DNA of 64,000 bases from Candidatus Hecatella orcuttiae (GCA_002011035.2 MTLY02000001.1:471546-535545); one strand, 5' to 3'; numbered from the stretch's first letter, positions 41,253 through 62,594 are shown. Made by a program: numbers and translations. The notes: generated by a model from the letters alone, not told the origin.

Positions 41253-42638
41253 TCAAGCCTGTAAGGGTACGCCTAGGTCTGCCAGCTGCCTTTTCACTTC
41301 CCTGTAGAGGCTCAGCCACTCCTCCGTTGGCTTAAGCGTCTTCAGGTTGTAACATTCCATGAAGGTCTTACCTAAAGGCGGGTTTCTCAGCTTCTCCTCG
41401 TATCTTGGGAGAATGGCCTTCACTACGTCATTAGCCTCGGTGCGCTTCATCCCCGCGCATGATTTGGAGACCTCCGCTGCGAACTTCTGCTCCAAAGGAG
41501 TGATGTGATCCACATGCTTCCCGCCCGCTGAACGGTTGCCGCATTGAACCGCGCAGCCCGAGGCGACCTGCTCCAAGGCGCCCGCCGCCATCTCGTAGAG
41601 AACCTCGCGAGTGCATGGGCCTGAAACCTGACTGGTCACACCTCCTATAAGAAGATGAGTGTTCCTGCTCACAGCCTGCTCCGCCACGCTGGCCGCCCAG
41701 AGGGCGTCCCGGCCTACGTTTCCCCCATACCTGACGTCGTAGATCACCCCGGAGATGAGAGCGCACCTGTGAACTAGAAGCTGAAGTAGCACAGCTGCCA
41801 CCGCCGCCAGAGCTGCCCCCTCAGGGGGGCCCACGTAGCCTCCTATCATGGACCAGTGGCCGCCGTAGATGTAGCTTCCGTTACCTTGAATCCTCACAAC
41901 CTTGTGGAGCAAGCCGTAGGAGGTTTTTAACTCCGTGACGGCGAGGGCGAGCCCCATGTCGCTTCGCGCGTAACCGTGGAGGGCACCGTAGCCGCCTAAG
42001 AGGCCGTACTCTGTGGGGCTGAGGGCGACTCCTATGATCGGCGCGCCTAGCCTGCCGGCTCTTCTGAGGGCTTCCTTCACCTTGGCTGCCTCGTTTATTC
42101 CGGCTAGGCTTTCATAGGGTGAACCCGCTAGGATAGGCCGCCCGTGGAGGGTGGAAGTTGTCAAGGGGGTCACCAGGTCGATGATTTTTAACGACGCCAT
42201 GGCTTGCATCAGCTCCATGTAATGCTCCTCTGAAACCACTCCGAACCCGGACCTGAAGAGGGGAGGCTGAGGGTCTTCAGGCTTCCTAGCCTTGACCACC
42301 AATTTCTCCGTGCCTTCCCCGATGGTTATTTCGCTGGGGGCTTGGTAGCGTATTGCCTCCTTCAACTCTTCTTCGGTGAACTTGATCGTTCTCTCCGTGT
42401 CCAAGCAGAGCATGCCTGTGTCCGCGGCGAATTCGAAGCCGGCTTTCCAGAATTCGTCTGCGAGGGTGTCGTCAGTGTTTACGGAGTTCGCGGGGTCGCA
42501 TGTCTTAGTCAGGCCGTGCTCCCTAAGCTTTTCCTTGACATGGGTGGGTATGATGTGCTTGTCCCATTTTTCAACTTCGCAGACAGGGCCCGAGTGCGCC
42601 CGGTCTAAGACTTCTAGAAAACTCACCACGCAGACCAC
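41253..42638 (-). CDS. mtmB: MtmB-family corrinoid methyltransferase, pyrrolysine-free (copy 1)
   Basis: DRAHSGP, LADEF..AG, AGR.G, ELK, IGGY.G..EG and SGPCT motifs; Ile at the Pyl position; no in-frame TAG. Confidence 0.85.
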   Translation of the reverse strand: MVCVVSFLEVLDRAHSGPVCEVEKWDKHIIPTHVKEKLREHGLTKTCDPANSVNTDDTLADEFWKAGFEFAADTGMLCLDTERTIKFTEEELKEAIRYQAPSEITIGEGTEKLVVKARKPEDPQPPLFRSGFGVVSEEHYMELMQAMASLKIIDLVTPLTTSTLHGRPILAGSPYESLAGINEAAKVKEALRRAGRLGAPIIGVALSPTEYGLLGGYGALHGYARSDMGLALAVTELKTSYGLLHKVVRIQGNGSYIYGGHWSMIGGYVGPPEGAALAAVAAVLLQLLVHRCALISGVIYDVRYGGNVGRDALWAASVAEQAVSRNTHLLIGGVTSQVSGPCTREVLYEMAAGALEQVASGCAVQCGNRSAGGKHVDHITPLEQKFAAEVSKSCAGMKRTEANDVVKAILPRYEEKLRNPPLGKTFMECYNLKTLKPTEEWLSLYREVKRQLADLGVPLQA

Positions 42639-42740
42639 CGGTGGGAAGGTTATTTTGGACGATTATATAAACTCTAACAGCAAAGCTTAAACACCTAAGG
42701 CTGAAAAACAGTAGGTCGAAGGTGGAACGGTGAAAAAAGC

Positions 42741-44168
42741 ATGAGTATCCTGGTTGAAGGCGGAATCATGGTTACAAACGACCCTTCCAAGCCCGTGGTG
42801 AAAGACGGCGCTGTGGCGGTGGAGGGAGATAAAATTGTGGCGGTGGGTAGGGCGGAGGAGGTGAAACGGAATTACGCGGCGGAGGAAATTGTAGACGCCC
42901 GTGGGAAGCTGGTGATTCCGGGAATGGTGAACGCCCACACTCACATGTTCCAAGCCCTCGGGCGCAGCATGTATTCTTCGCTGCTGGGCAGCATGGACAC
43001 TGTGGATAAGGACATGTGGCTGTGGAACCTGCTGGAGAGGTTCCTGTTCCCCCTTTCCCAAGTTCTAACAGTGGAGGATGTAGTCACTGGAGCGAACCTT
43101 GCCTGCGTTGAAATGGTGAGAAGCGGCATCACCTGCGTGGTGGACAACCACTACGGGCCCACGGATAAGGCCACAGTGGTGAAGCTGGCCGAGGCCCTGG
43201 AGAAATTCGGAATGAGAAGCGTGATCGCCAGAGGAATAGCCCCCAAGGAAAAACCTCCGCTGGCTGACAAGGTGAGGATTCCCGGGCATGTTTTCAAGTA
43301 CTCCTCCGAGGAGGAGCTGAGGATTACGGAGGAATGCATCTTGGAGGTGAACCGCCAAAGCAGCCTCATCCAAGTCTGGCCGGCGCCTCTTAACGAGATG
43401 TACACCTATCCCGAAACGATAAGGAAAGCCTACGAGCTCGCGGAAAAACACGGCGTAGGCCTGCACACCCACATTCAAGAGGCCGGTAATGAAACAAGGC
43501 TGTATACTGAGGAGTACGGGAAAAAGCCCGTGGAGCTCCTCTACGAGCTGGGTGTTCTTTCCCCCAAGTTTCACATTGTTCACGGCATATACCTCACGGA
43601 AGAGGAAATCGACCTCGCCGGAAAAACCGGAGCCACCGTGGTGCATAACCCTTGGAGCAACGCATGCTTCGGCACAGGAGTAGCTCCGATACCTCGGCTG
43701 GTGGAGAAAGGCGCCAACATCGCCCTCGGCACGGATGGGGTGTACGAGAACATGTTTGAAGCCCTCAAGATGGCTTCCGGCCTTCAGGGAGCTGTCCACG
43801 CTAACCCTGTGTTGATGCCCGCGGACAAGGTTTTCGAATTTGCAACGCTGGGCGGGGCGAGGGCTTTGGGGCTTGAAAAGCAGCTGGGCTCCCTGGAGCC
43901 GGGAAAGAAAGCAGACCTAGTGGTCGTAAACGTGAAAAAGCCGAATATGATGCCCTTCCCTTGGGATGCATCCGCCCGCGGCCTAGCCTACCACCTCATC
44001 CTCTTCGGTGTAAGCGCCTACGTGGACGCTGTCATCATCAACGGAAAGACCATTATGGAAAACGGGGTGCTTAAAACCGTCGACGAGGACTCTGTGCTGG
44101 AAAAAGCCCAAGAGACAGCCGAGAGCCTGAGAGAAAGAGTGTCATCGGTCACAGCCGGTAAACTCTGA
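42741..44168 (+). CDS. Amidohydrolase, deaminase-like (paralog B)
   Basis: NAHTHMFQ, HTHIQE and LGTDG motifs; shares identical DNA tracts with paralog A. Confidence 0.88.
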   Translation: MSILVEGGIMVTNDPSKPVVKDGAVAVEGDKIVAVGRAEEVKRNYAAEEIVDARGKLVIPGMVNAHTHMFQALGRSMYSSLLGSMDTVDKDMWLWNLLERFLFPLSQVLTVEDVVTGANLACVEMVRSGITCVVDNHYGPTDKATVVKLAEALEKFGMRSVIARGIAPKEKPPLADKVRIPGHVFKYSSEEELRITEECILEVNRQSSLIQVWPAPLNEMYTYPETIRKAYELAEKHGVGLHTHIQEAGNETRLYTEEYGKKPVELLYELGVLSPKFHIVHGIYLTEEEIDLAGKTGATVVHNPWSNACFGTGVAPIPRLVEKGANIALGTDGVYENMFEALKMASGLQGAVHANPVLMPADKVFEFATLGGARALGLEKQLGSLEPGKKADLVVVNVKKPNMMPFPWDASARGLAYHLILFGVSAYVDAVIINGKTIMENGVLKTVDEDSVLEKAQETAESLRERVSSVTAGKL

Positions 44169-44239
44169 TACGCAGAGAAAACCGATCGGCTTCCAGCTCT
44201 TTCCTCCCACTCCAAGACTTGGATGAGTTCGATTAGAGC

Positions 44240-45301
44240 CTACTTGTAACGCCCATACTTCTCTGCTGATTCAACCATTTTTTTGACGTTCACGGCGGGC
44301 GTTCGGTAGGGGATGATGTAGCTGCTTGACAGCAGATAGGCTCCTCCCGCGCCGCCTTTTCTTATGGCTTCCTTGCACTGGTCTTCAACCTCCCCTGGAG
44401 AGCCGTAGAGTAAGGTTTCCTCTTTGATGTTGCCCATCAGCGCCACCCGTCTCCCGACCTTTTCCTTCGCTACACCTAGGTCGGTTTTTCCAAGGCTTAA
44501 CACGTCTGCGCCCACCTCCGCCATCCTTTCAAGGGAAATCTCAGCGTTTCCGCAGCAGTGGAGAATGTATCCCGCTCCAGCCTCGTGCACAGCGTCTGCC
44601 AGCTTCTTGGCGTAGACACCGTTCACCTCCCAGCCCAAGTCAGGGCCTAGCACGTTTTCCGCAAACCAGTCTTCCGCGCTTATTATCCACCGGCATCCAG
44701 CCTCCACCTGCGCCTTGCAGAAGGCTACGGCGCATTCGGTGACGAATTCCATGTACCGACGCTGAAAATCCCGGTTTCGAACCACGTCGACCATGACGTT
44801 CTTCGGCCCCCTGAGATATTCAGCCCAGTAGCTCAGCCCTCCGAATCCTCCGAGGACCGCCGCCTGAGAGCCTACCTCACGGCTGAGAATCTCAGCAGCC
44901 TTGATCCGGGAGGGCATGGAGCCGTCTTTTCTGGGGTTCGGCTTCTCAAGGTCGTCTAGGTCCTCCTCCCTCGTGAGCAGGGGTTTGGAGCAGTCCACGT
45001 AAGGTTCACCCCTCTCGGATATGACCACTTCAAGGCCGAAAGCGTCTACTCCGCAGACAGTCCAGAGAAAGCTGCAGACGTTGTCGGATCCGAACATCTC
45101 CCGCCCTCGGAGCATCGCTTTCGCTATTCCTTCCGCGTCCCAAAAAATATCCTTCCAAGTTAAGCCTAGAGAATCAAGCACAGTATGAGCAGCTCCTAAG
45201 CCGTAGTACACCACAGGAACCCTGTCGGGGATACCTCTCTTCGCAGCCTTCTCAAACCGCTCCCTGCTGCTCAGCATAAGCCCGCGATCCCCGGCTGCCA
45301 A
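44240..45301 (-). CDS. URO-D/MT2-family (MtbA/MtaA-like) methyltransferase
   Basis: PDRVPV, ILHCCG, ALMGNI and GSP.EV...C motifs; adjacent to the corrinoid protein. Confidence 0.82.
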   Translation of the reverse strand: MAAGDRGLMLSSRERFEKAAKRGIPDRVPVVYYGLGAAHTVLDSLGLTWKDIFWDAEGIAKAMLRGREMFGSDNVCSFLWTVCGVDAFGLEVVISERGEPYVDCSKPLLTREEDLDDLEKPNPRKDGSMPSRIKAAEILSREVGSQAAVLGGFGGLSYWAEYLRGPKNVMVDVVRNRDFQRRYMEFVTECAVAFCKAQVEAGCRWIISAEDWFAENVLGPDLGWEVNGVYAKKLADAVHEAGAGYILHCCGNAEISLERMAEVGADVLSLGKTDLGVAKEKVGRRVALMGNIKEETLLYGSPGEVEDQCKEAIRKGGAGGAYLLSSSYIIPYRTPAVNVKKMVESAEKYGRYK

Positions 45302-45369: not shown

Positions 45370-46071
45370 CTAAGCGGAGGTAATGCCTTTTATCACAGGC
45401 TTTTTCAGCTCTCGCCCTCTTTCTATCAGGCTTCTGCAGAGTTCCGGGGCGTCCTCCGCGTTCTTACCCCAGCCGTCCGCTGCTATTTCCTCCGCCCACC
45501 TAGTTGTGACGGAGGCTCCTCCAACGATGACGTAATGGTCTTCCCTGATTCCCATATCTTGAAGCAGAGCCACCGTCTCTTTTTGGTAGTAGAGGGATGA
45601 AGTCAGCAGGCTGGACATTCCTATGATGTCCGCCTTCACCTTCCTAGCTTCCTCAACGAATTTTTTAGGGTGCACATCCACCCCAAGGTCATGGACCTCA
45701 AAGCCGCCGCTTTCCAGCATGGCCACGACAAGGTTCTTCCCGATATCGTGGATGTCACCGTACACGGTGCCGATGACCACGACGCCCTTCCTCATATCAG
45801 CCATCTCCTCCTTGGAAAGGCGGGACTTTAAAACCTCCAACCCAGCCTTCATGGCGTCCGCTGCCAACATGACTTGGGGCAGGAAAATTTCGAAGTTGTG
45901 AAACTTCTCCCCTATCACAGCCATGCCTTTGGCGAGGCCTTCATTTATGGCCTTGGTGGGGCCTACTATGTCCGCTGCTTCCTCCGCCGCCGCCTTTGCA
46001 GCTTGCTCGTCGCCGTTTATCACAGCTTCTTCGAGACGTTTTAAAACAATCGATTCATCCTTAGCGCTCAT
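45370..46071 (-). CDS. Corrinoid protein (MtmC/MtbC-like)
   Basis: Cap domain IFLPQVMLAA; GDIHDIGKNLV, DLGVDV, SSLLT and VGGA motifs. Confidence 0.93.
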   Translation of the reverse strand: MSAKDESIVLKRLEEAVINGDEQAAKAAAEEAADIVGPTKAINEGLAKGMAVIGEKFHNFEIFLPQVMLAADAMKAGLEVLKSRLSKEEMADMRKGVVVIGTVYGDIHDIGKNLVVAMLESGGFEVHDLGVDVHPKKFVEEARKVKADIIGMSSLLTSSLYYQKETVALLQDMGIREDHYVIVGGASVTTRWAEEIAADGWGKNAEDAPELCRSLIERGRELKKPVIKGITSA

Positions 46072-46241: not shown

Positions 46242-48185
46242 CTAACCGTATCCCGGCGGCTTCTTTCTAGGAGTGGGGGAGGTTACCTGTAGCAGTTTTT
46301 CTTCCAGTTCCTCTGCCACTTCTCCCAAGCCCAGCTCTAAAAGTTTCTGCTTTGCGGGCAGGCCGCTTTCAATATTCCATCCTCGCAACGTGTAATATTC
46401 TCTCAGCATCTCTTCCAACTCTACCACCTGCCCCTTCGCCGGACCCTTCGGGGAGGGCTCCTTCGTCAGACGTTCAGGCAGAATGTCGTCCTTGCGGCTT
46501 ATTCCTTCCCGAGCATTGAAGGCTCGGTTGAGGTTTACGATGCGTTCGCCGATGAGGCGTAATCTTTCCTCAGAAACGTTCATGCCGCAGGTTAGTTTCA
46601 GAGCTTTGGAGATGTCATCGTAGTAGTAGACGGGGGGAATCTGGGTTCCGTACTTGCACACTCCCACGGACTCAACCACGACCATGTAATCCTCGCATTC
46701 CTTGACCATCAGCCCCTTGTACTTCGGGTTCAACCTATCCGCTATTTCCGGCAGGTACTCTTTTCCAAACCTCTCCTCTATCGTATCCTTGAAGCTCACT
46801 TCGTCGAGCACTGGGAAAGCGTAGAGGTGGTCTGCGCCCCTCGCCGCTGTGACGGCGGCCAGCCCCATGGATTTCTGGGCTCTGGGCTCCTGGGCTGCTA
46901 TCTCCTGTTTCTTAACGTGCATGACATATTTCTCCGAGCCTCTCCCAATTTTCCTAGCCGCCCGGTAGCTTCCCTCCGCAAGCAGGTCTCCGAAGCCTTT
47001 CCGCTTGGCTATCATGGTGATCAGCTGGATTAGGGTTTCATAGTTTCCCCAAGAGAGGTCTATTCCGCCTGTGTCTTTCTTGGTGAGAATGCCTACGTCG
47101 TAGCATTCCATGGCCCACGATATAGTTGCACCGGTGGATATGCCGTCCATGCCGTAGGCGTTACAAAGGTAGTGAGCGAAGAGCACAGCTTCCACATTCG
47201 ACACACCGCACCGGGAACCTAGGCTGCTCTGAGTTTCAAACTCCGGGCTTCCGCCTATGAAGGCGAAGGGCCCCTTATCCACTTTGGTGTAGCGGCCGCA
47301 CCGCTGCACACAGGAGAAGCATGCTCGAGGTTTCACCAAGTACTTCTTTCGGATGGTTTCGCCGCTGATTTTTTCATATTCTTCGAAGACTCCCTGACGC
47401 ATGTTGTAGGTGGGAAGCCGGCCGATCTCCTGCATGAGCTCGATGAGGTAGGTGGTGCCATACTTCACCCGCCCCTCGGTGAAGGGGTGGGCGAGCATTC
47501 TTTTCTGCAGCTCGTCAATGAACTCCAGATATTTGTCAGCCTCAGCGACCTCGATATCTTTGCTTCCGCGGACAACTATAGCCTTCAGTTTTTTAGACCC
47601 CATCACCGCCCCGAGGCCGGAGCGAGCTGCGCAGCGTTCTCTATCATTCATTATGGCGGCGTAGCGCACCAGATTCTCGCCTGCAGGGCCTATGGAGGCT
47701 ACTTTAACATAGGGGTCCCCCATGTCTTTCCTCAGAATGTCGTCGGTTTCATGGGTGGTTTTACCCCAGAGGTCCCCTGCCTCTTTAAGCTCCACCGCAT
47801 CGTCGTCGATCCTCAAGTACACAGGCTTGGCTGAGCGTCCTTCAACGACGATGGCGTCGTATCCCGCATATTTCAGCTCCGGCCCCCAGTGGCCTGCAGC
47901 GTGGGACTCCCCCCAGATCTCTGTCAGGGGAGACTTCGCAGCGACCACATACCGTGAAGCTTGGGGGAACAAGGTGCCTGTCAGAGGGCCTGTTGCAAAC
48001 ATCAGAACGTTCTCCGGGCTTAGAGGGTCTGTTCCGGGTTTAATCCTATCGTATAGAATCCTAGAGCAGAACCCTGCTCCTCCCAGGTACTCTAAAGCCA
48101 GCTTTTCGTCGAGGGGAACTTTCTTCAGCTTCCCGGTGGTGAGGTTGACGTGTAGAAACAGGCCTGCGTAGCCTTTAAACTTCAC
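46242..48185 (-). CDS. aor: Tungsten-dependent aldehyde:ferredoxin oxidoreductase family protein
   Basis: KSPLT, IGPAGENLVRYA, GLGAVMGSKKLKA, CFSCVQRC, RGADH and YY.LRGW motifs. Confidence 0.92.
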   Translation of the reverse strand: MKFKGYAGLFLHVNLTTGKLKKVPLDEKLALEYLGGAGFCSRILYDRIKPGTDPLSPENVLMFATGPLTGTLFPQASRYVVAAKSPLTEIWGESHAAGHWGPELKYAGYDAIVVEGRSAKPVYLRIDDDAVELKEAGDLWGKTTHETDDILRKDMGDPYVKVASIGPAGENLVRYAAIMNDRERCAARSGLGAVMGSKKLKAIVVRGSKDIEVAEADKYLEFIDELQKRMLAHPFTEGRVKYGTTYLIELMQEIGRLPTYNMRQGVFEEYEKISGETIRKKYLVKPRACFSCVQRCGRYTKVDKGPFAFIGGSPEFETQSSLGSRCGVSNVEAVLFAHYLCNAYGMDGISTGATISWAMECYDVGILTKKDTGGIDLSWGNYETLIQLITMIAKRKGFGDLLAEGSYRAARKIGRGSEKYVMHVKKQEIAAQEPRAQKSMGLAAVTAARGADHLYAFPVLDEVSFKDTIEERFGKEYLPEIADRLNPKYKGLMVKECEDYMVVVESVGVCKYGTQIPPVYYYDDISKALKLTCGMNVSEERLRLIGERIVNLNRAFNAREGISRKDDILPERLTKEPSPKGPAKGQVVELEEMLREYYTLRGWNIESGLPAKQKLLELGLGEVAEELEEKLLQVTSPTPRKKPPGYG

Positions 48186-48188
48186 AGC

Positions 48189-48587
48189 TCATTCACCTTT
48201 GACTATTTCTAAGCACCTAACCGGGCATTGTTTCACGCAGAAACCGCATAGAGTGCAGTTTATCGCCACATGCCTGCTGGGATGCATGAATATAGCGTCA
48301 TAGGGGCATGCGTCCACGCATAAGGTGCAGCCGGTGCATTTTTTTTGGTTGATGACGACCAAGCCGGTTTTTTCGACTTTCCTGATAGCTCCCTCCGGGC
48401 AGGCCTCGATGCAGGCCGGCTTTTCGCAGTGCCTACAAGCCACTGGAATATCTTGGCCTTCCTCCCGGCGTACAACTCTAACTCTGGCTTTTTTCGGGTT
48501 CAGCACATGTTCATGGAGGAAGGCGCAGGAAAGCTCACAAATCCGGCAGCCGGTGCATTCCAAGGGGTCAGCGTGTAAGTAAGGCAT
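48189..48587 (-). CDS. Polyferredoxin (4x[4Fe-4S]) subunit partnering the AOR
   Basis: CTGCRICELSC, CRHCEKPAC...CP, CTGCTLCVDACP and CTLCGFCVKQCP motifs. Confidence 0.9.
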   Translation of the reverse strand: MPYLHADPLECTGCRICELSCAFLHEHVLNPKKARVRVVRREEGQDIPVACRHCEKPACIEACPEGAIRKVEKTGLVVINQKKCTGCTLCVDACPYDAIFMHPSRHVAINCTLCGFCVKQCPVRCLEIVKGE

Positions 48588-48591
48588 GATG

Positions 48592-51278: not shown

Positions 51279-51291
51279 ATGCGGTGATGGT

Positions 51292-53917: not shown

Positions 53918-54946
53918 ATGAGCACAAGAAGACTTGTGATAGCTCTCGGAGGCAACGCCATAAAGCAAGCTGACGAAAGAGGAACAACTGAGGAGCAGTT
54001 TCGAAACATAGTGACGACCTGCAGGCAGATAGTAAAAATTCTGGAAAAAGACCCCGATATGGAGCTTGCCATAACCCACGGCAACGGCCCCCAAGTTGGG
54101 AATCTGCTTCTCCAGCAGGAAAAAGCCAGCGACGCCATTCCAGCTCAAACACTAGACGTACTCAACGGTATGACGCAAGGTCAAATAGGCTACATGCTTC
54201 AGCAGACATTGCAGAACAGCCTCAGAGAAGCCGGCGGCAAGCTGGGAAGGAGGCAAGTTATATCCATCGTCAATCAAGTACTGGTAAGCCGCGACGACCC
54301 TGACTTCCTCGACCCCTCCAAGCCAATAGGCAATTTTTTCACAAAGGCAGAAGCGGAACGGCTTGCAGCTGAGGAAGGCTACGTCATCAACCCTCCCGCT
54401 GGCAAAAAATATCTGGACAAAAAAATGAAGGGTATGGTGATAAAGCAGGTTAAGCCTGCAAACGTGACCCCTCGACCTTTCAGGAGGGTAGTTCCGTCGC
54501 CTGAACCTATCAGGAACGTTGAGGCTGAGGTCATCCGGTTGCTGGTTGAGCAGGGGATAATTGTCATAGCATCTGGCGGCGGAGGGATACCTGTCATAAT
54601 GAACGAGCAAGGCCGCCTCGAAGGAGTTTTCGCTGTCATAGACAAGGACAAAGCTGGAGAAAAGATGGCCTCCGCCATCAAGGCGACTGATTTTCTGATA
54701 CTGTCCGACGTTGAATATGCTATGTTAAATTTCGGTAAAGAAAACCAGAAGCCGATACGTAGAATATCTGTGAGGGAGGCTGAAAAATACCTTTCAGAGG
54801 GACATTTCCTCGCTGGAAGTATGGGCCCGAAGGTTGTCGCCTGCATAAGATTCCTCAAAAACGGCGGTCGGAGAGCTATCATAACAAGCCTGCACAAAGC
54901 AGCGGAAGCCTTAGAAGGCCGAGTAGGCACCCACCTTTATAGATAA
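53918..54946 (+). CDS. arcC: Carbamate kinase (with an insertion in the protruding subdomain)
   Basis: ALGGNA, THGNGPQVG, RRVVPSP, GGGGIPV, VIDKD and GSMGPKV motifs. Confidence 0.95.
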   Translation: MSTRRLVIALGGNAIKQADERGTTEEQFRNIVTTCRQIVKILEKDPDMELAITHGNGPQVGNLLLQQEKASDAIPAQTLDVLNGMTQGQIGYMLQQTLQNSLREAGGKLGRRQVISIVNQVLVSRDDPDFLDPSKPIGNFFTKAEAERLAAEEGYVINPPAGKKYLDKKMKGMVIKQVKPANVTPRPFRRVVPSPEPIRNVEAEVIRLLVEQGIIVIASGGGGIPVIMNEQGRLEGVFAVIDKDKAGEKMASAIKATDFLILSDVEYAMLNFGKENQKPIRRISVREAEKYLSEGHFLAGSMGPKVVACIRFLKNGGRRAIITSLHKAAEALEGRVGTHLYR

Positions 54947-55032: not shown

Positions 55033-55782
55033 ATGAATGTCGCTGTAGAATCCCAGCGATTTATTTCTAACTTGTGGAAAGATATAGAGATCCCTGTGGA
55101 TAAGATTAAACCCAGCAAGTTCAGTTTGAGGGACGTAGACGGGTCGACTGTCAAAGAGTTGGCTGAATCCATCAAGGCCAACGGACTGCTTCAACCCATC
55201 ATGGTTAGGCCTTCGCCCAACGGCTACGAGCTTGTCTTCGGCCTTCACAGACTTGAAGCCTGCAAACAGTTGGGCTGGGAGAAAATCCCCGCAGTGCTCA
55301 AGGATGTGCCTGATGACGAAGTCTTATTGATGAGCATCGTTGAAAATCTTCAACGTAACATTCACGTAAACCCCATCGCTGAAGCCCGCAGCTATAAGTT
55401 TCTGATGACCAAAGGGTGGACTGTCCCTGAGATTTCGGCGAAAATAGGTAAAACAGACAAATACGTCTACGAAAGGTTAAGATTACTGTACAAGCTGCAT
55501 CCGAAAATCCGGAAAGAACTGGACAAGCGAGTTCACCCATCGCCTCTGACCCCCTCCCATCTGGAACGCCTTGCCCTCATCGACGATCCTCAACTTCAAC
55601 TGAAGCTGGCTAGGCTGGTTCAGAAGAAGCGTTTATCCGTACGGCAGCTTGAGCGTTTAACGCGGAAACTCAAAAGGATAATGCCCGCGGGATGCCTCTG
55701 CAAAAAATGCTCCAACTACCCTTGCAAATACATTCCTGGAGAAGACGATAAGGACTTGATGTATAAACACGCCTTCGGCTGA
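55033..55782 (+). CDS. ParB/Spo0J-family protein with C-terminal Cys cluster; no parA in the window
   Basis: LAESIK.NGLLQPIMVR, FGLHRLEA, ENLQR, HTH, LSVRQLE and CLCKKCSNYPC. Confidence 0.88.
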   Translation: MNVAVESQRFISNLWKDIEIPVDKIKPSKFSLRDVDGSTVKELAESIKANGLLQPIMVRPSPNGYELVFGLHRLEACKQLGWEKIPAVLKDVPDDEVLLMSIVENLQRNIHVNPIAEARSYKFLMTKGWTVPEISAKIGKTDKYVYERLRLLYKLHPKIRKELDKRVHPSPLTPSHLERLALIDDPQLQLKLARLVQKKRLSVRQLERLTRKLKRIMPAGCLCKKCSNYPCKYIPGEDDKDLMYKHAFG

Positions 55783-55815: not shown

Positions 55816-57024
55816 TCAGTCCACATACTTCATCAAGATGCAGCCTTCCACAGGGCACACCGTTGGGCACAGAGCGCATCCCACGCATTTTTCTTTATCC
55901 ACCTTGGGGAGCCGTTTTTCAACGTCGAATTCGATGGCTTGATGGCCTCCGTCTCTGCAGGCAACATAACATTGCCCACATCCCACGCATTTTTCTTCGT
56001 CGATGAAAGCTTTGACAAGAGGAGTACGCTTCAACTGCTCGTGGGTGGTGATGAAGGGAAGCGACTTACCCACCAGCTCCATGGGAGAGGAAAAGCCGTG
56101 AGTCTCGAGGTAGTTGGATAGCCCAACTTTGAGATCGTCGATTATTCCGTAGCCGTGGTGCATCACCGCTGTGCACAGCTGCACGGTGGTGGCTCCCACC
56201 AGCATCAGCTCCACAGCGTCGCTCCAGCTCATCACTCCTCCAGTGCCGGTTATCGGGATGTCCACGTTCTTCTTTATCTCAGCAATGGTTCTGAGGGTGA
56301 TAGGCTTGATGAAATGCCCTGACAGGCCGCTGTAGGTGGACTTGTTTCGGACATTGGGATAGGGAACAAACGTATCCAAGTCGATGCCCATGAGGGAGGG
56401 TATCGTGTTGGATGCACAGATAGCGTCGGCGCCGCCTTCCTTGATCTTTTTCGCAATCTCCGCGATGAACGCTACCTGAGGAGTGATCTTGATGACCACA
56501 GGGGCGCGTTTGGCGGCGGACTTCACCCACTGGGTCACCATTTTGGAGGCGTCCCCATCCTGTCCAAGCATAGCCCCAGGCCTCTGCCCCATCGATCCTT
56601 GAGGACATGAGAAAGAGCACTCGATCATGTCCACGCCGGCCTCTTCCAAACGTCGGACAAGCTCTTGCCACTCTTCCTTGTTCGATCCCATGATGGAAGC
56701 CATTACCACTTTTTCTGGGAACTCCTTTTTCAGCGTGGCAACACGTTTCTCTACTTCCTCTATTCCGTAACGCGATATCAGGTCGATGTTGCCTAGTCCA
56801 GCCATCCTCCGGTCCTCCATGTTGATGGAGGACATCATGGGGTATACGAGGTCCACTTTCACGCTTTCCACGTGGGTTGTCTTCAACACGGCTCCAGCCC
56901 AGCCCTGCTTGAATGCTCTCCGAACCATGTCCAATTCGTCGGTGGGAGGCCCGGCGGCGAGCACGAAGGGGCTCTCGAATTTTATTCCGCAAAGCTCAAC
57001 CGAGAGATCTTTATAGCGGTACAT
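55816..57024 (-). CDS. preA: Dihydropyrimidine-dehydrogenase PreA-like subunit (FMN, C-terminal ferredoxin)
   Basis: GWAGAVLKT, NIDLIS, SCPQG, KITP, SNT, YSGLSG..IKPI and two CxxCxxC motifs. Confidence 0.88.
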   Translation of the reverse strand: MYRYKDLSVELCGIKFESPFVLAAGPPTDELDMVRRAFKQGWAGAVLKTTHVESVKVDLVYPMMSSINMEDRRMAGLGNIDLISRYGIEEVEKRVATLKKEFPEKVVMASIMGSNKEEWQELVRRLEEAGVDMIECSFSCPQGSMGQRPGAMLGQDGDASKMVTQWVKSAAKRAPVVIKITPQVAFIAEIAKKIKEGGADAICASNTIPSLMGIDLDTFVPYPNVRNKSTYSGLSGHFIKPITLRTIAEIKKNVDIPITGTGGVMSWSDAVELMLVGATTVQLCTAVMHHGYGIIDDLKVGLSNYLETHGFSSPMELVGKSLPFITTHEQLKRTPLVKAFIDEEKCVGCGQCYVACRDGGHQAIEFDVEKRLPKVDKEKCVGCALCPTVCPVEGCILMKYVD

Positions 57025-58352
57025 CAGCTCTCACCTCGAAGGTAGGCTGCAATCGCCCTTGCAGCCTTTTTCCCGTCACCCACAGCGCGCACCACGGTGT
57101 TGTCGTAGCTGACTAGGTCTCCGCCTGCGAACACGCCTTTTCGACTTGTCATCATGTTATCGTCTACTTTCACCTTGCCATAACGGTCTAATTCAATCCC
57201 GTTGCGGACATAGAATTCTGGTGAAAGTTTCGACCCGAGAGCGAGAACCAAACAATCGAATTCCGTGTGGTAGGTTGCCCCTTCCACTGGAACAGGTTTC
57301 CTCCTTCCAGACTCGTCAGCTTCCTCCAACCTCATAACTTGGCATTTCGCTCGGTAGTTTCCTTTTCCAGTGGGGAGGAATTCCACCACGGTTGTGAGCA
57401 GTTTAAAATTAACACCTTCAGCCATCGCAGCTTCAACCATCCTCCGCTCCGCAGGCATCTCAGCGAAGGTTCTCCGATAGATCACCGTGCACTCTCCACC
57501 GAGTCTGACAGCAGTTCGGGCAACGTCGAAAGCAACGTCACCGCCGCCTACCACACCCACTTTTTTACTCTTCAGAAACCCAAGTGCACCCTCATCTGCC
57601 ATGCGCAGAAACTGACTTGCGCTGAAAACACCTTCCAGGGGGCCTTGGAGAGGATATTCTATGTCAACATCTAAGCCGCATCCTAAGAACACAGCATCAA
57701 ACTCACCTTCCAACGCAGCCAAGTCAACAACCTCTGAGCCGTATCGGAGGTCTATCCCGCTTTTGACTGCAAAGTCTACTTCACTTTTAACGATTTCTCG
57801 GGGAGCGCGGAAGGGGGGAATACCCCAAGATGGAATACCGCCAGCCTTTTTCTGTTTCTCGAAAACCGTAACTCTATAACCCATCTTCCTGAGTTCGAAG
57901 GCGCAAGCCAAACCCGCCGGCCCAGCTCCCACCACGGCGACTTTCTGAGGGTGTTCTTCGGGAACGGTGACTTCTTTTTTCCAGTTTTTCTCTTCCCAGT
58001 CGGCGGCGAAACGTTGGAGGGAGTGAATGTTTATGGCACTGTCTATTTTCTTTCTGGTGCATTCTCCTTCGCACAGCCTGTCCACAGGGCATACTCGGGC
58101 GCATAGGCCTCCGAACAAGTTTTCCTCTTTTATCTTCTGCGCCGCCCCAGCGAAGTCTCGCTCCTTTATCCGCCGGATGAAAACAGGAATATCGATGTTC
58201 GCGGGGCAGTTCTTTCGGCAGGGCGGCTCATAACATTGGAAACACCGGGAGGCTTCCTGTAAGGCGGCATCAATGGACATTGCCGGTTCGACCTCATGAA
58301 AGTAACTCTCATCCGGCTTGTTCTCAAGCTTCGGGGATATTTTCTTCCCCAC
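57024..58352 (-). CDS. preT: PreT/GltD-like FAD/Fe-S NAD(P)H subunit
   Basis: EASRCFQC..PPC..NCP, CARVCP...LCEGEC, GAGPAGL and GVFAGGD motifs; coupled to preA. Confidence 0.88.
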   Translation of the reverse strand: MGKKISPKLENKPDESYFHEVEPAMSIDAALQEASRCFQCYEPPCRKNCPANIDIPVFIRRIKERDFAGAAQKIKEENLFGGLCARVCPVDRLCEGECTRKKIDSAINIHSLQRFAADWEEKNWKKEVTVPEEHPQKVAVVGAGPAGLACAFELRKMGYRVTVFEKQKKAGGIPSWGIPPFRAPREIVKSEVDFAVKSGIDLRYGSEVVDLAALEGEFDAVFLGCGLDVDIEYPLQGPLEGVFSASQFLRMADEGALGFLKSKKVGVVGGGDVAFDVARTAVRLGGECTVIYRRTFAEMPAERRMVEAAMAEGVNFKLLTTVVEFLPTGKGNYRAKCQVMRLEEADESGRRKPVPVEGATYHTEFDCLVLALGSKLSPEFYVRNGIELDRYGKVKVDDNMMTSRKGVFAGGDLVSYDNTVVRAVGDGKKAARAIAAYLRGES

Positions 58353-58450: not shown

Positions 58451-59719
58451 TCACTGCTCTGCATTCAATATTTTTCTCTTAAACTCCTCGATGTCAGGTT
58501 TGATGGTGGGCACTTCGCCTTCCATTTTCATCGTAGCCTCAGGGTCTTTCAGCCCACTCCCTGTGATGAGCGCCACCACAGTTTCATCCTTTTCTATGAC
58601 GCCTTTCTCCGCAAGTTTAATCAGCCCAGCCAGCGAGGCTACTCCGGAAGGTTCAGCGAAGACTCCTTCTAGGGAGGCTAGAAGTTTCTGAGCCTTGAGT
58701 ATATCCTCATCCGGAACTTCCTCCGCCGTGCCTGACTTCTTCAGAACATTCAACGCCACATCCGCATCCCATGGGAAAACATCCGCCAACCCTCCAGCTA
58801 CGGTGCGGGGGTTCTTCCATGGTTCAAGCTCCCGGAGCGATTTTTTCTCCCTGAAAGCCTTCACCAAAGGAGCGCAGCCTGTGGACTGAATGGCGGCCAG
58901 TTTCGGCATGAAGTCGATGAAACCTATCTCTTTAAAGTCTCTAAACCCCTTCCAGACTCCTGCAAAAAGGCAGGCTGAGCCTACGGGGATTATTATCCAG
59001 TCAGGCAGCTTCCAGCCTAACTGCTCAGCTATCTCGTAGGATATGGTCTTCGGCCCCTCAACTTGGTATGGGTTGAAAGGCCCGAAGCTGGGGCAGGGAT
59101 ACCATCCGTACTCCTCAATAACCTTCTGGAGCATTTGGACGGTAGGGTCCTTTCCCTCCTCCGCAGGCTTTACCTTCACCACCCGGGTTCCGTGGAGGCG
59201 GATCTGGGCGATTTTGGCCGTGGAGGCGGACTCTAAAACGAAGGCGAAACATTTCAACCCTGCTTTAGCCGAATACGCAGCCAAGGAAGCCGCCGCGTTT
59301 CCACTGGAGGCTGTTGCCACGGTTCTGACTCCGAACTCCACAGCCTTGGATACGCCCACCGTCATCGAGCGGTCTTTAAAAGACCCTGTGGGGTTTCTTG
59401 TTTCATCCTTCAGGTAAAGGTTTCTCAAACCGATTTTTTCACCGAGGCTCTCCGCCTTCAAAAGCGGACTGCCTCCCTCGTTCAAGGTAACGGCGTTCTT
59501 TTCGCTTTTGAGGGGGAGAAATTCGAAATATTTCCATAGAAAGGGAGCCCGCTCGGCTAGGTTCTTTTTGCTCACTTTTTCAGCGATGGCGGAGTAGTCG
59601 TAGTCTAGGTCAAGGCGGCCGCCGTCTTTTTTCAGGCACATGTAAACCTTTTCATCTGGAGAGTAATCTCTCCCGCAGGCAGAGCATCTCATTCTGGTAA
59701 CGAAGGCCATCTGTTTCAC
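58451..59719 (-). CDS. thrC: Threonine-synthase-like fold-II PLP enzyme
   Basis: NPTGSFKDR, ASSGNAAASLA, EGPKT, EG.FAEP and TGSGLKD motifs. Confidence 0.8.
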   Translation of the reverse strand: MKQMAFVTRMRCSACGRDYSPDEKVYMCLKKDGGRLDLDYDYSAIAEKVSKKNLAERAPFLWKYFEFLPLKSEKNAVTLNEGGSPLLKAESLGEKIGLRNLYLKDETRNPTGSFKDRSMTVGVSKAVEFGVRTVATASSGNAAASLAAYSAKAGLKCFAFVLESASTAKIAQIRLHGTRVVKVKPAEEGKDPTVQMLQKVIEEYGWYPCPSFGPFNPYQVEGPKTISYEIAEQLGWKLPDWIIIPVGSACLFAGVWKGFRDFKEIGFIDFMPKLAAIQSTGCAPLVKAFREKKSLRELEPWKNPRTVAGGLADVFPWDADVALNVLKKSGTAEEVPDEDILKAQKLLASLEGVFAEPSGVASLAGLIKLAEKGVIEKDETVVALITGSGLKDPEATMKMEGEVPTIKPDIEEFKRKILNAEQ

Positions 59720-59800
59720 ATCTTCAACCTGAGTTGACGTTGAGGGTTAAAAAATAGGAAACACTCTTAAATCTTAACCCGACACTTGCCTTTCCCGGGT

Positions 59801-61195
59801 TTACAGCGGCTTCAACGGGACTCCAAAATCAACGAGTTCTTTTTTCACCTTGTCGTAGATTTCCCGCCACTCCTTTGTAGGCTTCAAAGTCTTGAGGTCA
59901 AAGCATTCGGTGAAACTCTTTCCATCGGGCGGAGCGGCCAGTTTGGCTTCATATCGAGGGATGAAGACTTTTGCGATCTCGTTGGCTTCCCCCAGCTTCA
60001 TGCCCGCGGAGCCTTTGAGCACCTCTCCGCAGAATTTGCACTCTAAGGGACTCACGTAATTGGTGAGCCTTCCTCCAGCTGAACGGGGACCGACGGCGTA
60101 GCTAGCTCCGGAGGCGGAGATGCATATCATGCTCACCGCCGACTCGTAGAGAAGCATCTCAGTGCAAGGGCCTGCCACTTGATTAGGCCCCGACATGACT
60201 AGGATGTGAGTGTTCCGTGAAAGAGCCTGGCAGCCGATGCTGGTCGTCCAGATGCCCTCCCGGCCGCAGTTACCCGAGTATCTGATGTCCATGCATCCCA
60301 CGTAGCCTGTTAGGCTTCGGTGGACCAGCAAATTCAACAAGGCGCAAGCGATGGACGCTACAGCGGCACCTTCCGCCCCGCCCGCATAGCCCCCGATCAT
60401 GGACCACGTTCCCGCGTGAATGATTCCTCCGCAGTTGAGGGTGTGAACCACCTTATGCATGGCGTGGTAGGTGGTTTTAAGCTCAGGAGGGAAGAGAATT
60501 AAAGCCAAGTTCCCCGGCCTGTAGCCACCTGGGATACCGTATCCTCCAAGCTGTCCGTAGGCTGTGGGGCTGGTTATGACCGCCTGAAACCCTATTCCCG
60601 GCCTGCCGGCTCTCCAAACAGCTTCCTGGTGCATCTGTGCCTGAAGCCGGGCTGCCAGCGTTTCGAAGGGCGTCCCTGCCAGCACACGCTTGCCGAACAC
60701 CGTTTCAAGAGAAGGCCCTTCGATGATGTCCACTTCCCTATGTTGCGCTATTCCTTGGGTTAGGGGGATGAACAGTTCCTCGGAAACCGTTATGCCGAAG
60801 GGTGCGCACCAAACCGGAGGATAACCGTCTCCGGGCTGCCTGCTCTTCATAACCACCCTGTCTAAGCCTTCGCCCAACACGGCTTCTTTCGGCGCTGTTC
60901 TGACGGCTTCCCGCAGCTCCTCCTCGTCTACTTTTATCACTCTCTCAGTGTCTTGGCATAGCATTCCCGCGTCTACCGCTAAGTCGAATCCTGCCCGCCA
61001 AAACGAATCAGCCAAGCCGCCGTCGGTGTTGACGAGGTTGGCGGGGTCGTAGACTTTTTGGATGCCGTAGGCTCTCAGTTTTTCCGCTATCTTAGCCGGT
61101 ATGACTTTAAAGTTCCAGTCCTTAACGGTGCAGAACGGTCCGTTGTGGGCGCGGTCGAGGATTGGTAAGTAAATATGAGACATGAGTTTCCTCAC
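59801..61195 (-). CDS. mtmB: MtmB-family corrinoid methyltransferase, pyrrolysine-free (copy 2)
   Basis: DRAHNGP, AGRPGIGFQAV (Gln at the Pyl site), IGGYAGGAEG and AGPCTEMLLYE. Confidence 0.87.
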   Translation of the reverse strand: MRKLMSHIYLPILDRAHNGPFCTVKDWNFKVIPAKIAEKLRAYGIQKVYDPANLVNTDGGLADSFWRAGFDLAVDAGMLCQDTERVIKVDEEELREAVRTAPKEAVLGEGLDRVVMKSRQPGDGYPPVWCAPFGITVSEELFIPLTQGIAQHREVDIIEGPSLETVFGKRVLAGTPFETLAARLQAQMHQEAVWRAGRPGIGFQAVITSPTAYGQLGGYGIPGGYRPGNLALILFPPELKTTYHAMHKVVHTLNCGGIIHAGTWSMIGGYAGGAEGAAVASIACALLNLLVHRSLTGYVGCMDIRYSGNCGREGIWTTSIGCQALSRNTHILVMSGPNQVAGPCTEMLLYESAVSMICISASGASYAVGPRSAGGRLTNYVSPLECKFCGEVLKGSAGMKLGEANEIAKVFIPRYEAKLAAPPDGKSFTECFDLKTLKPTKEWREIYDKVKKELVDFGVPLKPL

Positions 61196-61205
61196 ACGGA
61201 GTTAT

Positions 61206-62594
61206 TCACTCTACAGGGATTCCGAGGTCTATGATTTCCCTCTTTACCTTGTCGTAGATTTCCCGCCACTCCTTTGTAGGCTTCAAAGTCTTGAGGTCAA
61301 AGCATTCGGTGAACTTTTTCCCCAGGGGGGGGTGGAACAATCTATTTTCATATTTTGGGAGGAGGGCCTTAGCAATGTCGTTAGCGGTCTTACGTTTCAT
61401 CCCCGCGCAGGACTTGAAAACTTCAGCGCAAAACTTAGCCTCCAGCGGGCTGATGTAGTTGGAGTACTTACCCCCCGCCGACCGCGGGCCTATGGCCATG
61501 CTGGCGCTGGAGACGGAGATACTCATCATGCCCACCGCCGACTCGTAGAGAAGCATCTCAGTGCAAGGGCCTGCCACCTGGTTGATAATAGCCTCAGTCA
61601 GAAGGTGAGTGTTTCGACCTAAAGCTTGAAAAACAACGCTGTTAGCCCAAAGGGCTTCTCTTCCGCAGTTGCCAAAGTACCGGAGGTCATAGGCTCCGCA
61701 GCCGCCGTAAACAGCCTGATGAACAGGCCTCTCTAGGATGAAGATGGCTATGGCCGAGATGATGGAGCCTTCCGGGGAGCCGGAGTACCCTCCGATCATG
61801 GACCACGAACCGGTCCTGATGATTCCCCCGCAGTTGATGGCGTGGACCACCTTATGCAGACATGAATAGGATGTCTTCAACTCCGAGGGGAAGAGCACTA
61901 TAGCCACATCGGTAGGCTTGTATCCTCCGACCACACCGTATCCTCCGAACTGCCCGTACTCGGTGGGGCTGGTGATCACGGCTCCCGCAGCCATCCCCGG
62001 CCTGCCGGCTCTCCGAATTACTTCTTGGTGCATCTTGGCTTGCAGGTAGCCCGCCAGTGTCTCGTAGGGAGTTCGAGAAATAATCGGCCTGCCGTACACG
62101 GTTTCCAAGGTAGGCCCCTCCAGCATGTCTATCACCCTGTACTGCGCCACGCCCAGCATGAGGGGAACCCAAAGGTCTTCGGAGATGCCTATTCCCAACG
62201 TGGAGGCGTAGATGGGGACCTTCTCGTCTTCCGGCTTCCGGGCTCTCATGGTGAACCTATCCAAGCCCTCTCCCAAGGTGAGCTCGCTGGGGGAGTCCTT
62301 GAGGGCTTCCTTCAGCTCCTCTTCGGTGAACCTCACTACCCTGCCTGTGTCCGAGCACAGCATTCCCGTTTCAACAGCGAATTCGAAGCCTGCTCTGTAA
62401 AAATCATCCGCAAGACCGTCGTCGCAGTTGATGGGGTTATCCTTATCAAAGGTTTTGCTGAGCCCATGTTCTTTGAGCTTCTGGAGAACTCCTTCGCCTA
62501 TGACTTTGATATCCCAATCTCTCTCCGTGCAAACAGGGCCTGTGCACGTGCGGTCTAAGACTTCCAGAATACCGGGCGGAATCGACATGGACAT
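61206..62594 (-). CDS. mtmB: MtmB-family corrinoid methyltransferase, pyrrolysine-free (copy 3)
   Basis: LADDFYRAG, AGRPGMAAGAV (Gly at the Pyl site) and AGPCTEMLLYE. Confidence 0.87.
   Translation of the reverse strand: MSMSIPPGILEVLDRTCTGPVCTERDWDIKVIGEGVLQKLKEHGLSKTFDKDNPINCDDGLADDFYRAGFEFAVETGMLCSDTGRVVRFTEEELKEALKDSPSELTLGEGLDRFTMRARKPEDEKVPIYASTLGIGISEDLWVPLMLGVAQYRVIDMLEGPTLETVYGRPIISRTPYETLAGYLQAKMHQEVIRRAGRPGMAAGAVITSPTEYGQFGGYGVVGGYKPTDVAIVLFPSELKTSYSCLHKVVHAINCGGIIRTGSWSMIGGYSGSPEGSIISAIAIFILERPVHQAVYGGCGAYDLRYFGNCGREALWANSVVFQALGRNTHLLTEAIINQVAGPCTEMLLYESAVGMMSISVSSASMAIGPRSAGGKYSNYISPLEAKFCAEVFKSCAGMKRKTANDIAKALLPKYENRLFHPPLGKKFTECFDLKTLKPTKEWREIYDKVKREIIDLGIPVE

Follow-up and report, generated by a model that had tools for sequence, protein, structure and literature searches.

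So far, the known substrates of corrinoid-dependent methylotrophy are methanol, methylamines, methyl sulfides, methoxy-aromatics and quaternary amines. In the MtmB family, pyrrolysine (Pyl) is held to activate methylamine through a methylammonium adduct on its ring, and relatives that lack this residue, namely Pyl-free MttB proteins and MtqB, are described as using quaternary donors (PMC13044021). The same 2026 report presents MtqB/MtqC of Methanococcoides methylutens Q3c, which act on tetramethylammonium and choline, as the first function for a Pyl-free MtmB; its tree of the family holds 1,061 sequences, most of them of unknown function, and MtqB falls close to the Pyl-MtmBs according to its Figure 6 legend. 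The second system of interest is the bacterial cluster for reductive degradation of uric acid (2,8-dioxopurine), described as XdhD-YgfM, YgfK/UacX, SsnA, HyuA, YgeW, YqeA, YgeY and YgeX, in which SsnA opens the pyrimidine ring of the reduced 2,8-dioxopurine and UacX (PF01180) takes the place of YgfK in C. difficile (PMC12507026, PMC12990295); this pathway has been called restricted to selected anaerobic bacteria (PMC12990295). Here we analyze a stretch of 64,000 nucleotides from the archaeon Candidatus Hecatella orcuttiae (GCA_002011035.2 MTLY02000001.1:471546-535545), referred to in full as the window, that encodes three MtmB paralogs lacking Pyl. The evidence partly supports the view that they belong to a clade of Pyl-free MtmBs tied to purine-type catabolism, accompanied in this genome by an archaeal form of a reductive purine-degradation module. 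The gene context hints at an oxygen-free removal of methyl groups from methylated nucleobases.

The three genes, with their matches to Pfam family PF05369 (cut-off 25 bits), are as follows.

41253-42638, minus strand: MtmB paralog 1, 461 amino acids; 288.2 bits, E 1.5e-85; Ile202 at the Pyl position
59801-61195, minus strand: MtmB paralog 2, 464 amino acids; 306.3 bits, E 4.6e-91; Gln204 at the Pyl position
61206-62594, minus strand: MtmB paralog 3, 462 amino acids; 282.1 bits, E 1.1e-83; Gly204 at the Pyl position

All three matches run nearly from end to end, over model positions 3-450 of 450, and the open reading frames (ORFs) are intact, with no internal stop. The paralogs are 49-58% identical to each other and 30-33% identical to the Pyl-MtmB of the host genome, a gene on contig C1 (C1:354100-355452) that has a single in-frame TAG and an MtmB-family score of 729 bits. 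Paralog 2 matched Methanosarcina barkeri MtmB (1l2q) in phmmer with E 2.1e-73, and its AlphaFold2 model (pLDDT 94.6), the only one for which the fold was compared, superposed on 1l2q in Foldseek with TM 0.92 and an rmsd of 1.7 over 450 columns (E 2.8e-46). This paralog is predicted to have the TIM-barrel fold of the M. barkeri enzyme.

None of the three carries an in-frame TAG at the position of residue 202, the mark of a Pyl-MtmB; the codons there are ATA for Ile (42035-42033), CAG for Gln (60586-60584) and GGA for Gly (61985-61983). An earlier note on this DNA, made from the sequence alone, had described these genes as Pyl-free MtmB paralogs. The peptides on which it relied (AGRLGAPI-I-GVALS, AGRPGIGF-Q-AVITS and AGRPGMAA-G-AVITS) are all present as quoted, the motifs WSMIGGY and D.RY.GN.GR occur in every paralog, and the CAG codon of paralog 2 lies exactly where it had been placed. 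With PF05369 scores of 282-306 bits and codons other than TAG, the assignment as Pyl-free MtmB-family proteins holds.

Four alignments bear on where the Pyl position falls. In phmmer, residue 202 of M. barkeri MtmB (1l2q/1nth, printed as X) aligned on Gln204 of paralog 2 with no nearby gap. A MAFFT alignment of the 12 MtmB-family genes of the genome put the TAG of the Pyl copy on the I, Q and G of the window paralogs, and hhalign of a 35-sequence clade profile against the host's Pyl-MtmB (TAG read as O) gave the same ungapped register from the shared GRPG block. Against this register, a MAFFT alignment of 341 sequences displaced Pyl by one column through a compensating pair of gaps, an ambiguity of plus or minus one in one alignment of four. 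The earlier note had named a shift of the Pyl position as grounds for abandoning its reading; three of the four alignments, including one against the genome's own TAG-containing MtmB, show no shift and agree on Ile, Gln and Gly, and the fourth shifts by a single column. We take the ungapped register as correct, and the Pyl-free conclusion is independent of the ambiguity because both candidate columns are hypervariable. At M. barkeri positions 205, 229 and 259, the phmmer alignment gives Ile, Leu and Gly in paralog 2; the M. barkeri residues Glu205, Glu229 and Glu259 are ones that we take to line the Pyl site.

Seven of the twelve MtmB-family genes in the host genome, the three in the window and four others, are 46-72% identical to one another and 28-37% identical to the remaining five. 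In a FastTree phylogeny of 341 family sequences, the seven fall into one clade of 224 tips (support 0.72), and the other five, including the Pyl gene, all lie outside it. The tree was built from the host's 12 genes, full-length homology-search matches and the MtmB ORFs of 79 related loci, with duplicates removed; the sample is weighted towards the window's clade and has no tip identified as MtqB. A search with C1:334246, the host paralog closest to Pyl-MtmB, gave 20 matches, none of them with an organism name. Across the clade, 19 residue types occur in the Pyl-equivalent column and 17 in the one preceding it, and the surrounding frame is conserved (G at -5, M/I at -4, V/I at +2, S at +5 and T at +7). 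Gly is retained at the Pyl site by all eight of the relatives closest to paralog 3 in the tree. A hypervariable column in a conserved frame is the pattern expected of a specificity determinant. Eighty clade columns are at least 90% conserved, 48 of them common with the host's Pyl-MtmB and 32 differing, a pattern that appears to be that of a working enzyme family with specificity varying at the old Pyl site. We consider it very improbable that the paralogs are catalytically dead or serve some role other than methyl transfer. The lack of Pyl and the replacement of the acidic residues presumed to line its site would fit such a loss of function, but the ORFs are intact, the 80 conserved columns extend over the 224-tip clade and include the 48 in common with Pyl-MtmB, and a corrinoid protein gene is adjacent in all of the long-flank loci described below.

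The clade is abundant: among 8000 candidates scored, 614 matched at E <= 1e-20, and at E <= 1e-30 there were 220 clusters at 50% identity. Its named sources are Chloroflexota, Dehalococcoidales and Bathyarchaeia. The earlier note had called this group an uncharacterised radiation. A large Pyl-free MtmB family does exist, but it is already in print with one assayed member, MtqB (PMC13044021), so the radiation itself is not new. What is new is the conserved purine-type gene context of the clade; we found no paper tying Pyl-free MtmBs to purine catabolism in a search to which subscription journals were external.

To survey this context, species-representative genomes were scanned; from 171 confirmed relatives, 79 loci were retained, and these come from Chloroflexota, Bacillota, Spirochaetota, a Deltaproteobacteria metagenome-assembled genome (MAG), Bathyarchaeia and 'Hadarchaeota' MAGs. 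Their ORFs were compared by blastp (E <= 1e-10, at least 50% query cover) with the 23 proteins encoded in window positions 34595-63760. Seven further gene families, taken from the related loci, were searched with nine query proteins at 40% cover. Counts are given for all 79 loci and then for the 32 long-flank loci, which have at least 9 kb on both sides.

corrinoid protein: 68/79; 32/32
COG0402-type amidohydrolase: 43/79; 28/32
binding protein or permease of a BMP-type ABC importer (base/nucleoside type): 31/79; 12/32
xanthine-dehydrogenase (XDH)-family Mo subunit: 28/79; 18/32
pterin-binding methylcorrinoid methyltransferase (MT2): 10/79; 6/32
RACo activase: 10/79; 8/32
aldehyde:ferredoxin oxidoreductase: 8/79; 7/32
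URO-D MT2: 6/79; 2/32
PucR purine regulator: 6/79; 3/32
hydantoinase: 5/79; 4/32
carbamoyltransferase: 5/79; 5/32
PreA-like: 5/79; 5/32
adenine deaminase: 3/79; 1/32
carbamate kinase: 1/79; 1/32
PreT-like: 1/79; 1/32

The ParB-like, ThrC-like and CysK-like genes of the window, which served as negative controls, were each found in 0 of the 79 related loci. An amidohydrolase or a BMP transporter was present in 30 of the 32 long-flank loci, and at least one ring-opening or carbamoyl gene in 8 of them.

The arrangements in these loci are operon-like rather than a loose vicinity. In the Deltaproteobacteria MAG (L050), one strand carries, by Pfam annotation, a PreT-like gene, a hydantoinase-type gene and a carbamoyltransferase, and further along a Tct transporter, MtmB, a corrinoid protein and carbamate kinase; two more carbamoyltransferases lie beyond one ORF on the opposite strand. 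In a Peptococcaceae MAG (L058), a PucR regulator is divergent from a corrinoid protein-MtmB pair followed by a pterin-binding MT2, and the surroundings hold two XDH genes, two amidohydrolases, a hydantoinase, a PreA-like gene and a carbamoyltransferase. Five further bacterial loci annotated with Pfam (Bacillota, Sporobacter, Clostridia, Spirochaetaceae and Treponema) all contain XDH-family genes, with the Mo subunit in each and the FAD and 2Fe-2S subunits too in most. Four of these five (L066, L073, L078 and L061) show a single one-strand string of corrinoid protein, MtmB, ABC ATPase, two permeases, BMP binding protein and amidohydrolase; in the fifth, from Treponema (L086), the transporter is encoded on the other strand. 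A Bathyarchaeia MAG locus (L080) includes two adenine deaminases, a BMP binding protein, aldehyde:ferredoxin oxidoreductase and amidohydrolases. The two adenine-deaminase-family genes of L080 (10294-12138 and 15583-17349) lie on either side of its corrinoid protein-MtmB pair; an N6-methyladenine deaminase presumably belongs to this same family.

These neighbourhoods can be set against two other possible substrate types. Since MtqB is the sole assayed Pyl-free MtmB and uses quaternary amines, as do all characterised Pyl-free MttB relatives in the Introduction of the same paper (PMC13044021), the paralogs might likewise demethylate small quaternary or simple methylated amines, with the purine-type neighbours unrelated or loosely co-regulated. 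We regard this as unlikely, because the neighbours recur across phyla (amidohydrolase in 28/32 and XDH in 18/32 long-flank loci) and are strung together on one strand in L050 and four of the five further bacterial loci. Moreover, BMP-type importers and no betaine/choline-type transporter occur among the Pfam-annotated loci, where L050 has the Tct transporter and L041 a BPD_transp_1 ABC transporter instead; an indirect indication is that 0 of the 79 locus titles name a Methanosarcinales genome. The position of the L050 MtmB among hydantoinase, carbamoyltransferase and carbamate kinase genes, and the string that window paralogs 2 and 3 share with a ring reductase and two pyridoxal-phosphate (PLP) enzymes, would also fit enzymes that act after ring opening, on N-methylated ureido or amino acids derived from methylated bases (for example N-methyl-beta-amino acids, sarcosine-like compounds or N-methyl-diaminopropionate). 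This we judge quite unlikely: the near-constant partner is the deaminase-type amidohydrolase (28/32) and not the ring-opening set (8/32), and on the established view secondary amines are the class thought to need Pyl (PMC13044021).

The same association is seen within the host genome. Four of its six BMP binding proteins, eight of its 12 BMP permeases and seven of its ten COG0402-type amidohydrolases lie within 10 kb of the seven clade paralogs, and none of these lies within 10 kb of the other five MtmB-family genes. A second host locus (C1:1-26000) repeats the make-up of the window: it combines a clade MtmB, next to a corrinoid protein gene, with one XDH, two BMP importers, three amidohydrolases, one PreA-like gene, one hydantoinase and one aldehyde:ferredoxin oxidoreductase. 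The link to N-methylated heterocycles that the earlier note had drawn is thus strengthened as far as the neighbours go, since they recur across phyla and within the host; the substrate class itself is still read from this context.

Two window genes would provide the methyl-transfer partners of the paralogs.

45370-46071, minus strand: corrinoid (B12-binding) protein, presumed methyl acceptor; PF02310 and PF02607; TIGR02370 203.1 bits, cut-off 215.3
44240-45301, minus strand: MtaA/MtbA-like (URO-D family) methylcorrinoid methyltransferase, MT2; PF01208 185.7 bits

The URO-D MT2 gene lies 68 bases downstream of the corrinoid protein gene and matches NCBIfam models of the MtaA/CmuA type below their cut-offs. 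The methyl-transfer set is completed by RamA, which is encoded outside the window (C1:465132-466952), 4.6 kb before its start. The corrinoid protein at 45370 is the only complete one in the window; a 164-amino-acid ORF at 17090-17584 on the plus strand has a B12-binding_2 cap domain only, with no B12-binding Rossmann domain. When the 14 corrinoid proteins of the genome were placed in one tree with those from the related loci, the 45370 protein came out nearest to C1:182522, which lies beside another clade paralog, and its other nearest neighbours are those beside clade MtmBs in 'Hadarchaeota' MAGs. In the loci L019-L023, which best match paralog 3 (67-78% identity), no corrinoid protein was seen on contigs that are short. 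Only three of the 14 are of the 45370 type, and because these three would serve seven clade paralogs, the sharing of one corrinoid protein among paralogs, as the earlier note had proposed, is plausible and a reasonable reading of the gene counts.

The remaining genes of 34595-63760 are as follows.

34595-38234, plus strand: ABC transporter ATPase and two permeases, BMP/PnrA type; PF00005, PF02653, NCBIfam
38392-39609, minus strand: BMP/PnrA-family substrate-binding protein; PF02608 87.2 bits
39798-41231, plus strand: amidohydrolase A, deaminase-type (COG0402-like, TRZ/ATZ); PF01979; below every NCBIfam cut-off
42741-44168, plus strand: amidohydrolase B, deaminase-type; 72% identical to A
46242-48632, minus strand: aldehyde:ferredoxin oxidoreductase and 4Fe-4S ferredoxin; PF01314/PF02730, Fer4
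48592-49971, minus strand: SsnA-like aminohydrolase; NF005540 429.7 bits (cut-off 444), TIGR03314 408.1 (cut-off 455.5)
50235-52320, plus strand: two carbamoyltransferases, 40% identical to each other; PF02729 and PF00185 (the Pfam families of YgeW); YgeW-like role proposed
52408-53811, minus strand: D-hydantoinase/dihydropyrimidinase, HyuA-like; TIGR02033 476 bits, cut-off 393.25
53918-54946, plus strand: carbamate kinase, YqeA-like (ATP from carbamoyl phosphate); TIGR00746 360.2 bits, cut-off 358.25
55033-55782, plus strand: ParB/Noc-like gene between the carbamate kinase and PreA-like genes; weak match to archaeal ADP-dependent serine kinase SerK
55816-58352, minus strand: PreA-like (PF01180 and Fer4) and PreT-like Fe-S flavoprotein pair, a ring reductase of the PydA/UacX/YgfK kind
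58451-59719, minus strand: threonine-synthase-like PLP enzyme; PF00291; NF006050 344.2 bits, cut-off 303
62705-63760, minus strand: cysteine-synthase-like PLP enzyme, first in its string; PF00291; TIGR01139 359.8 bits, cut-off 350.95

Two minus-strand strings mix methyl-transfer genes with genes of the reductive purine-degradation kind. The first runs cysK-like, mtmB3, mtmB2, thrC-like, preT-like, preA-like, with gaps of 110, 10, 81, 98 and -1 bases, so that paralog 3 ends 10 bases upstream of paralog 2; the second runs ssnA-like, ferredoxin, aldehyde:ferredoxin oxidoreductase, corrinoid protein, MT2, with gaps of -41, 3, 170 and 68. Paralog 1 is flanked by the two amidohydrolase genes, next to the BMP importer. 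The first carbamoyltransferase passes the N-acetylornithine carbamoyltransferase model NF003384 (313.2 bits, cut-off 288), and the YgeW models gave the pair 196.4 and 179.6 bits, below their cut-offs of 453 and 500. Of the uric-acid cluster members, an XDH gene and YgeY (no M20 peptidase) are not found in 34595-63760, and in NCBIfam the PF00291 pair exceeds the cut-offs for threonine synthase and CysK rather than that of a YgeX model. The PreA-like gene scores 470 bits against the PreA model NF006183 (cut-off 335) and 295.5 against the YgfK model (cut-off 835.3).

Among solved structures, the BMP binding protein is closest to AtzT, a periplasmic binding protein for atrazine (6pi5, E 2.4e-26), which was reportedly crystallised with guanine bound. 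The best Protein Data Bank match of amidohydrolase A is AtzA (4v1x, E 1.8e-50), followed by 8-oxoguanine, MTA/SAH and guanine deaminases. Its relatives thus include atrazine-pathway enzymes as well as a hydroxydechloroatrazine ethylaminohydrolase / 8-oxoguanine deaminase entry, and one could suppose that COG0402 hydrolases of the AtzB/AtzC type free methylamine from N-methylamino heterocycles and that the Pyl-free paralogs use this methylamine. That is improbable, because the genome retains a true TAG-containing MtmB together with PylS for methylamine, and because seven diverged paralogs with a hypervariable active-site position point to several larger substrates. The probability is similarly low that the substrates are N-methylated heterocycles other than purines, such as trigonelline-type pyridinium compounds, pterins, flavin fragments or methylated pyrimidines. 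XDH-family and COG0402 enzymes act also on nicotinate, pterins and triazines, the host paralog at C1:181110 lies beside an NMT1/THI5-type ABC importer instead of a BMP one, and the window reductase passes the cut-off of the pyrimidine enzyme PreA; opposed to this are the PucR regulators in 6/79 and adenine deaminases in 3/79 loci, the SsnA-, HyuA- and YqeA-like genes of the uric-acid pathway in the window, and the relationship of the binding protein to AtzT.

Together, these observations suggest that the three paralogs are corrinoid-dependent demethylases (MT1) for imported N-methylated purine-like heterocycles, that is, methylated nucleobases or close derivatives, a proposal that we consider evenly balanced between right and wrong. 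From the gene content we infer its substrate class, the order of the steps and the methyl acceptors, including that of the URO-D MT2. The base would be imported by the BMP-type ABC importer, and an MtmB paralog would move its N-methyl group onto the Co(I) form of the corrinoid protein (45370-46071), shared among the paralogs. The URO-D-type MT2 (44240-45301) would hand the methyl to a one-carbon carrier for the Wood-Ljungdahl pathway, with RamA re-reducing the cofactor when needed. The demethylated ring would be deaminated by the COG0402-type amidohydrolases, reduced by the PreT/PreA-like enzyme and opened by the SsnA-like enzyme and the hydantoinase, after which the two carbamoyltransferases would phosphorolyse the ureido groups and carbamate kinase would form ATP. 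Pyl may be dispensable here, as the methyl would already sit on a heterocycle nitrogen able to become a good leaving group; we reason that an N-methyl on a protonatable or cationic heteroaromatic nitrogen, or on an amidinium-type exocyclic nitrogen, could be a comparable donor. The substrate ring would then fill the space taken by the Pyl side chain in MtmB. The idea of a substrate standing in for the Pyl-methylamine adduct appears in the Discussion of PMC13044021.

A more specific version is tentative and possible at best. According to it, the clade would consist of position-specific, oxygen-independent N-demethylases for methylated nucleobases, either bases from RNA/DNA necromass or of the methylxanthine type, with the heterocycle in the place of the Pyl ring and mimicking the Pyl-methylamine adduct. 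Larger pockets and one enzyme per methyl position, as conjectured in the earlier note, would be further hypothetical features. A non-methanogenic Bathyarchaeon would harvest the methyl group through the Wood-Ljungdahl pathway and ATP from carbamoyl phosphate by way of an archaeal reductive purine pathway.

Several points weigh against the purine-base proposal. Gene neighbourhood cannot name a compound, and XDH-family and COG0402 enzymes act on non-purine heterocycles as well. Neutral N-methyl amide-type nitrogens such as those of caffeine donate methyl groups poorly unless activated. The ring-opening genes occur in just 8/32 and the BMP importer in 12/32 long-flank loci, and XDH is absent from the window. 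Because the PreA-like gene passes the PreA equivalog cut-off, the ring module might act on pyrimidines instead of purines, and the two PLP enzymes of the first string, which score as threonine and cysteine synthase, may be unrelated. Assigning families by blastp at E <= 1e-10 merges subfamilies, related organisms contribute loci that do not count independently, and the control for neighbourhood is the host genome's own five other MtmB-family genes. Finally, the only Pyl-free MtmB of known function, MtqB, uses small quaternary amines (PMC13044021).

The host genome (1.75 Mb, three contigs, 97% complete) gave no McrA match and encodes PylS, one TAG-containing MtmB and one TAG-containing MttB; it is therefore a non-methanogenic, Pyl-using Bathyarchaeon, and it is rich in corrinoid methyltransferases, with 11 Pyl-free MtmB-family and three Pyl-free MttB genes. 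The ribosomal protein L3 encoded in the window has named matches solely from Bathyarchaeota, Bathyarchaeia or Hecatellales, the best at 68% identity. A gene for the PylS C-terminal domain lies 3 kb from the TAG-containing MtmB, and the TAG-containing MttB, PylS and the TAG-containing MtmB form a Pyl island within 8 kb (C1:347390-355452). Two MtrH homologues and CdhC are also encoded, so that with RamA a route for the methyl group exists. The XDH Mo subunit is found at eight loci in the genome and none in the window, which for 1.75 Mb makes the host unusually rich in N-heterocycle hydroxylases. Two of the three contigs start within truncated XDH Mo-subunit genes (C1:11-1396 and C2:11-1429), and the assembly breaks seem to fall in XDH paralogs. 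Joining the window end to the start of C1, where the similar cluster lies, was considered and dropped: the truncated XDH gene lacks about 1.3 kb, and the last 240 bases of the window are too few.

Close relatives of the window's MtmBs are scarce among the relatives of the host. At E <= 1e-60, matches came from 0 of 13 same-family genomes and from 3 of 27 same-class genomes, with identity never above 39%, so that these genomes gave no trace of vertical inheritance of the clade. By contrast, 'Hadarchaeota' MAG contigs (L019-L023, L044, L049, L063 and L090) carry paralog 3 relatives with 67-78% identity and BMP permeases with as much as 69%. The L3 of the host is 52-54% identical to that of three of the four searched genomes holding MtmB loci, and the fourth gave no L3 match; the 'Hadarchaeota' genome with L020 has a paralog 3 relative at 78% and an L3 only 52% identical, and the other 'Hadarchaeota' genome searched is the one that gave no L3 match. 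High MtmB identity with low L3 identity points to gene transfer, suggesting that the whole module may have moved between archaeal lineages.

Elsewhere in the window, the ribosomal protein genes for L3-L4 (3797-5655) and L2 (18753-19466) are about 13 kb apart. The DNA between them is of lower G+C (0.385-0.43 at 8-14 kb) and encodes a NifB/FeMo-cofactor-type protein, two CbiA/ParA-type Fe-S ATPases, a radical SAM enzyme, DUF364 proteins and a binding protein; the string of ribosomal genes appears to have been split by an insertion here. At 23270-25348 on the plus strand is a 692-amino-acid protein with two PLD-like domains and a CAP (cysteine-rich secretory protein) domain.

If the proposal is true, N-methylated purine-like bases would be a new substrate class for corrinoid-dependent methylotrophy, and a function would be at hand for the largest sampled branch of 'unknown' Pyl-free MtmBs (224/341 in a sample weighted to the clade). 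It would also show that the bacterial reductive purine pathway, itself described only recently, has a counterpart in archaea. Because one genome holds a Pyl enzyme and eleven Pyl-free relatives, the system bears on why pyrrolysine evolved. It would further offer an enzyme candidate for anaerobic caffeine N-demethylation in sediments, where the N-methyl carbon of caffeine is reported to become methane, with Anaerolineae and Bathyarchaeia enriched; the preprint names no enzyme (bioRxiv 10.64898/2026.01.06.697959).

Compared with the systems described previously, the window paralogs share with M. barkeri Pyl-MtmB (1l2q, 1nth, 1tv2) the Pfam family and fold (33% identity for paralog 2), the GRPG, GGY and GPCTEM blocks and a corrinoid protein partner. 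They differ in carrying Ile, Gln or Gly instead of Pyl and in the 32 of 80 clade-conserved columns at which they depart from the host's Pyl-MtmB, for example D303, W316, Q323 and R371, and their neighbours are purine-type catabolic genes rather than methanogenesis genes, in a host with no McrA match. MtqB is likewise a Pyl-free MtmB homologue with a cognate corrinoid protein, but it acts on small quaternary amines, in a methanogen that passes the methyl to coenzyme M (PMC13044021). The Pyl-free MttB superfamily (MtgB and relatives) shows the same pattern of a Pyl family with many Pyl-free members using other N-methyl donors, according to that paper, although it is a separate family (PF06253) with a TM of about 0.5 and 11-14% identity to the paralog 2 model in Foldseek. 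The bacterial uric-acid cluster differs from that of the window in that the latter has an archaeal host, two carbamoyltransferases and a corrinoid methyl-transfer system inside it; the two have in common HyuA-like, YgeW-family and YqeA-like genes, an SsnA-like gene that in the window scores just under both SsnA cut-offs, PF01180 reductase genes and PF00291 enzymes.

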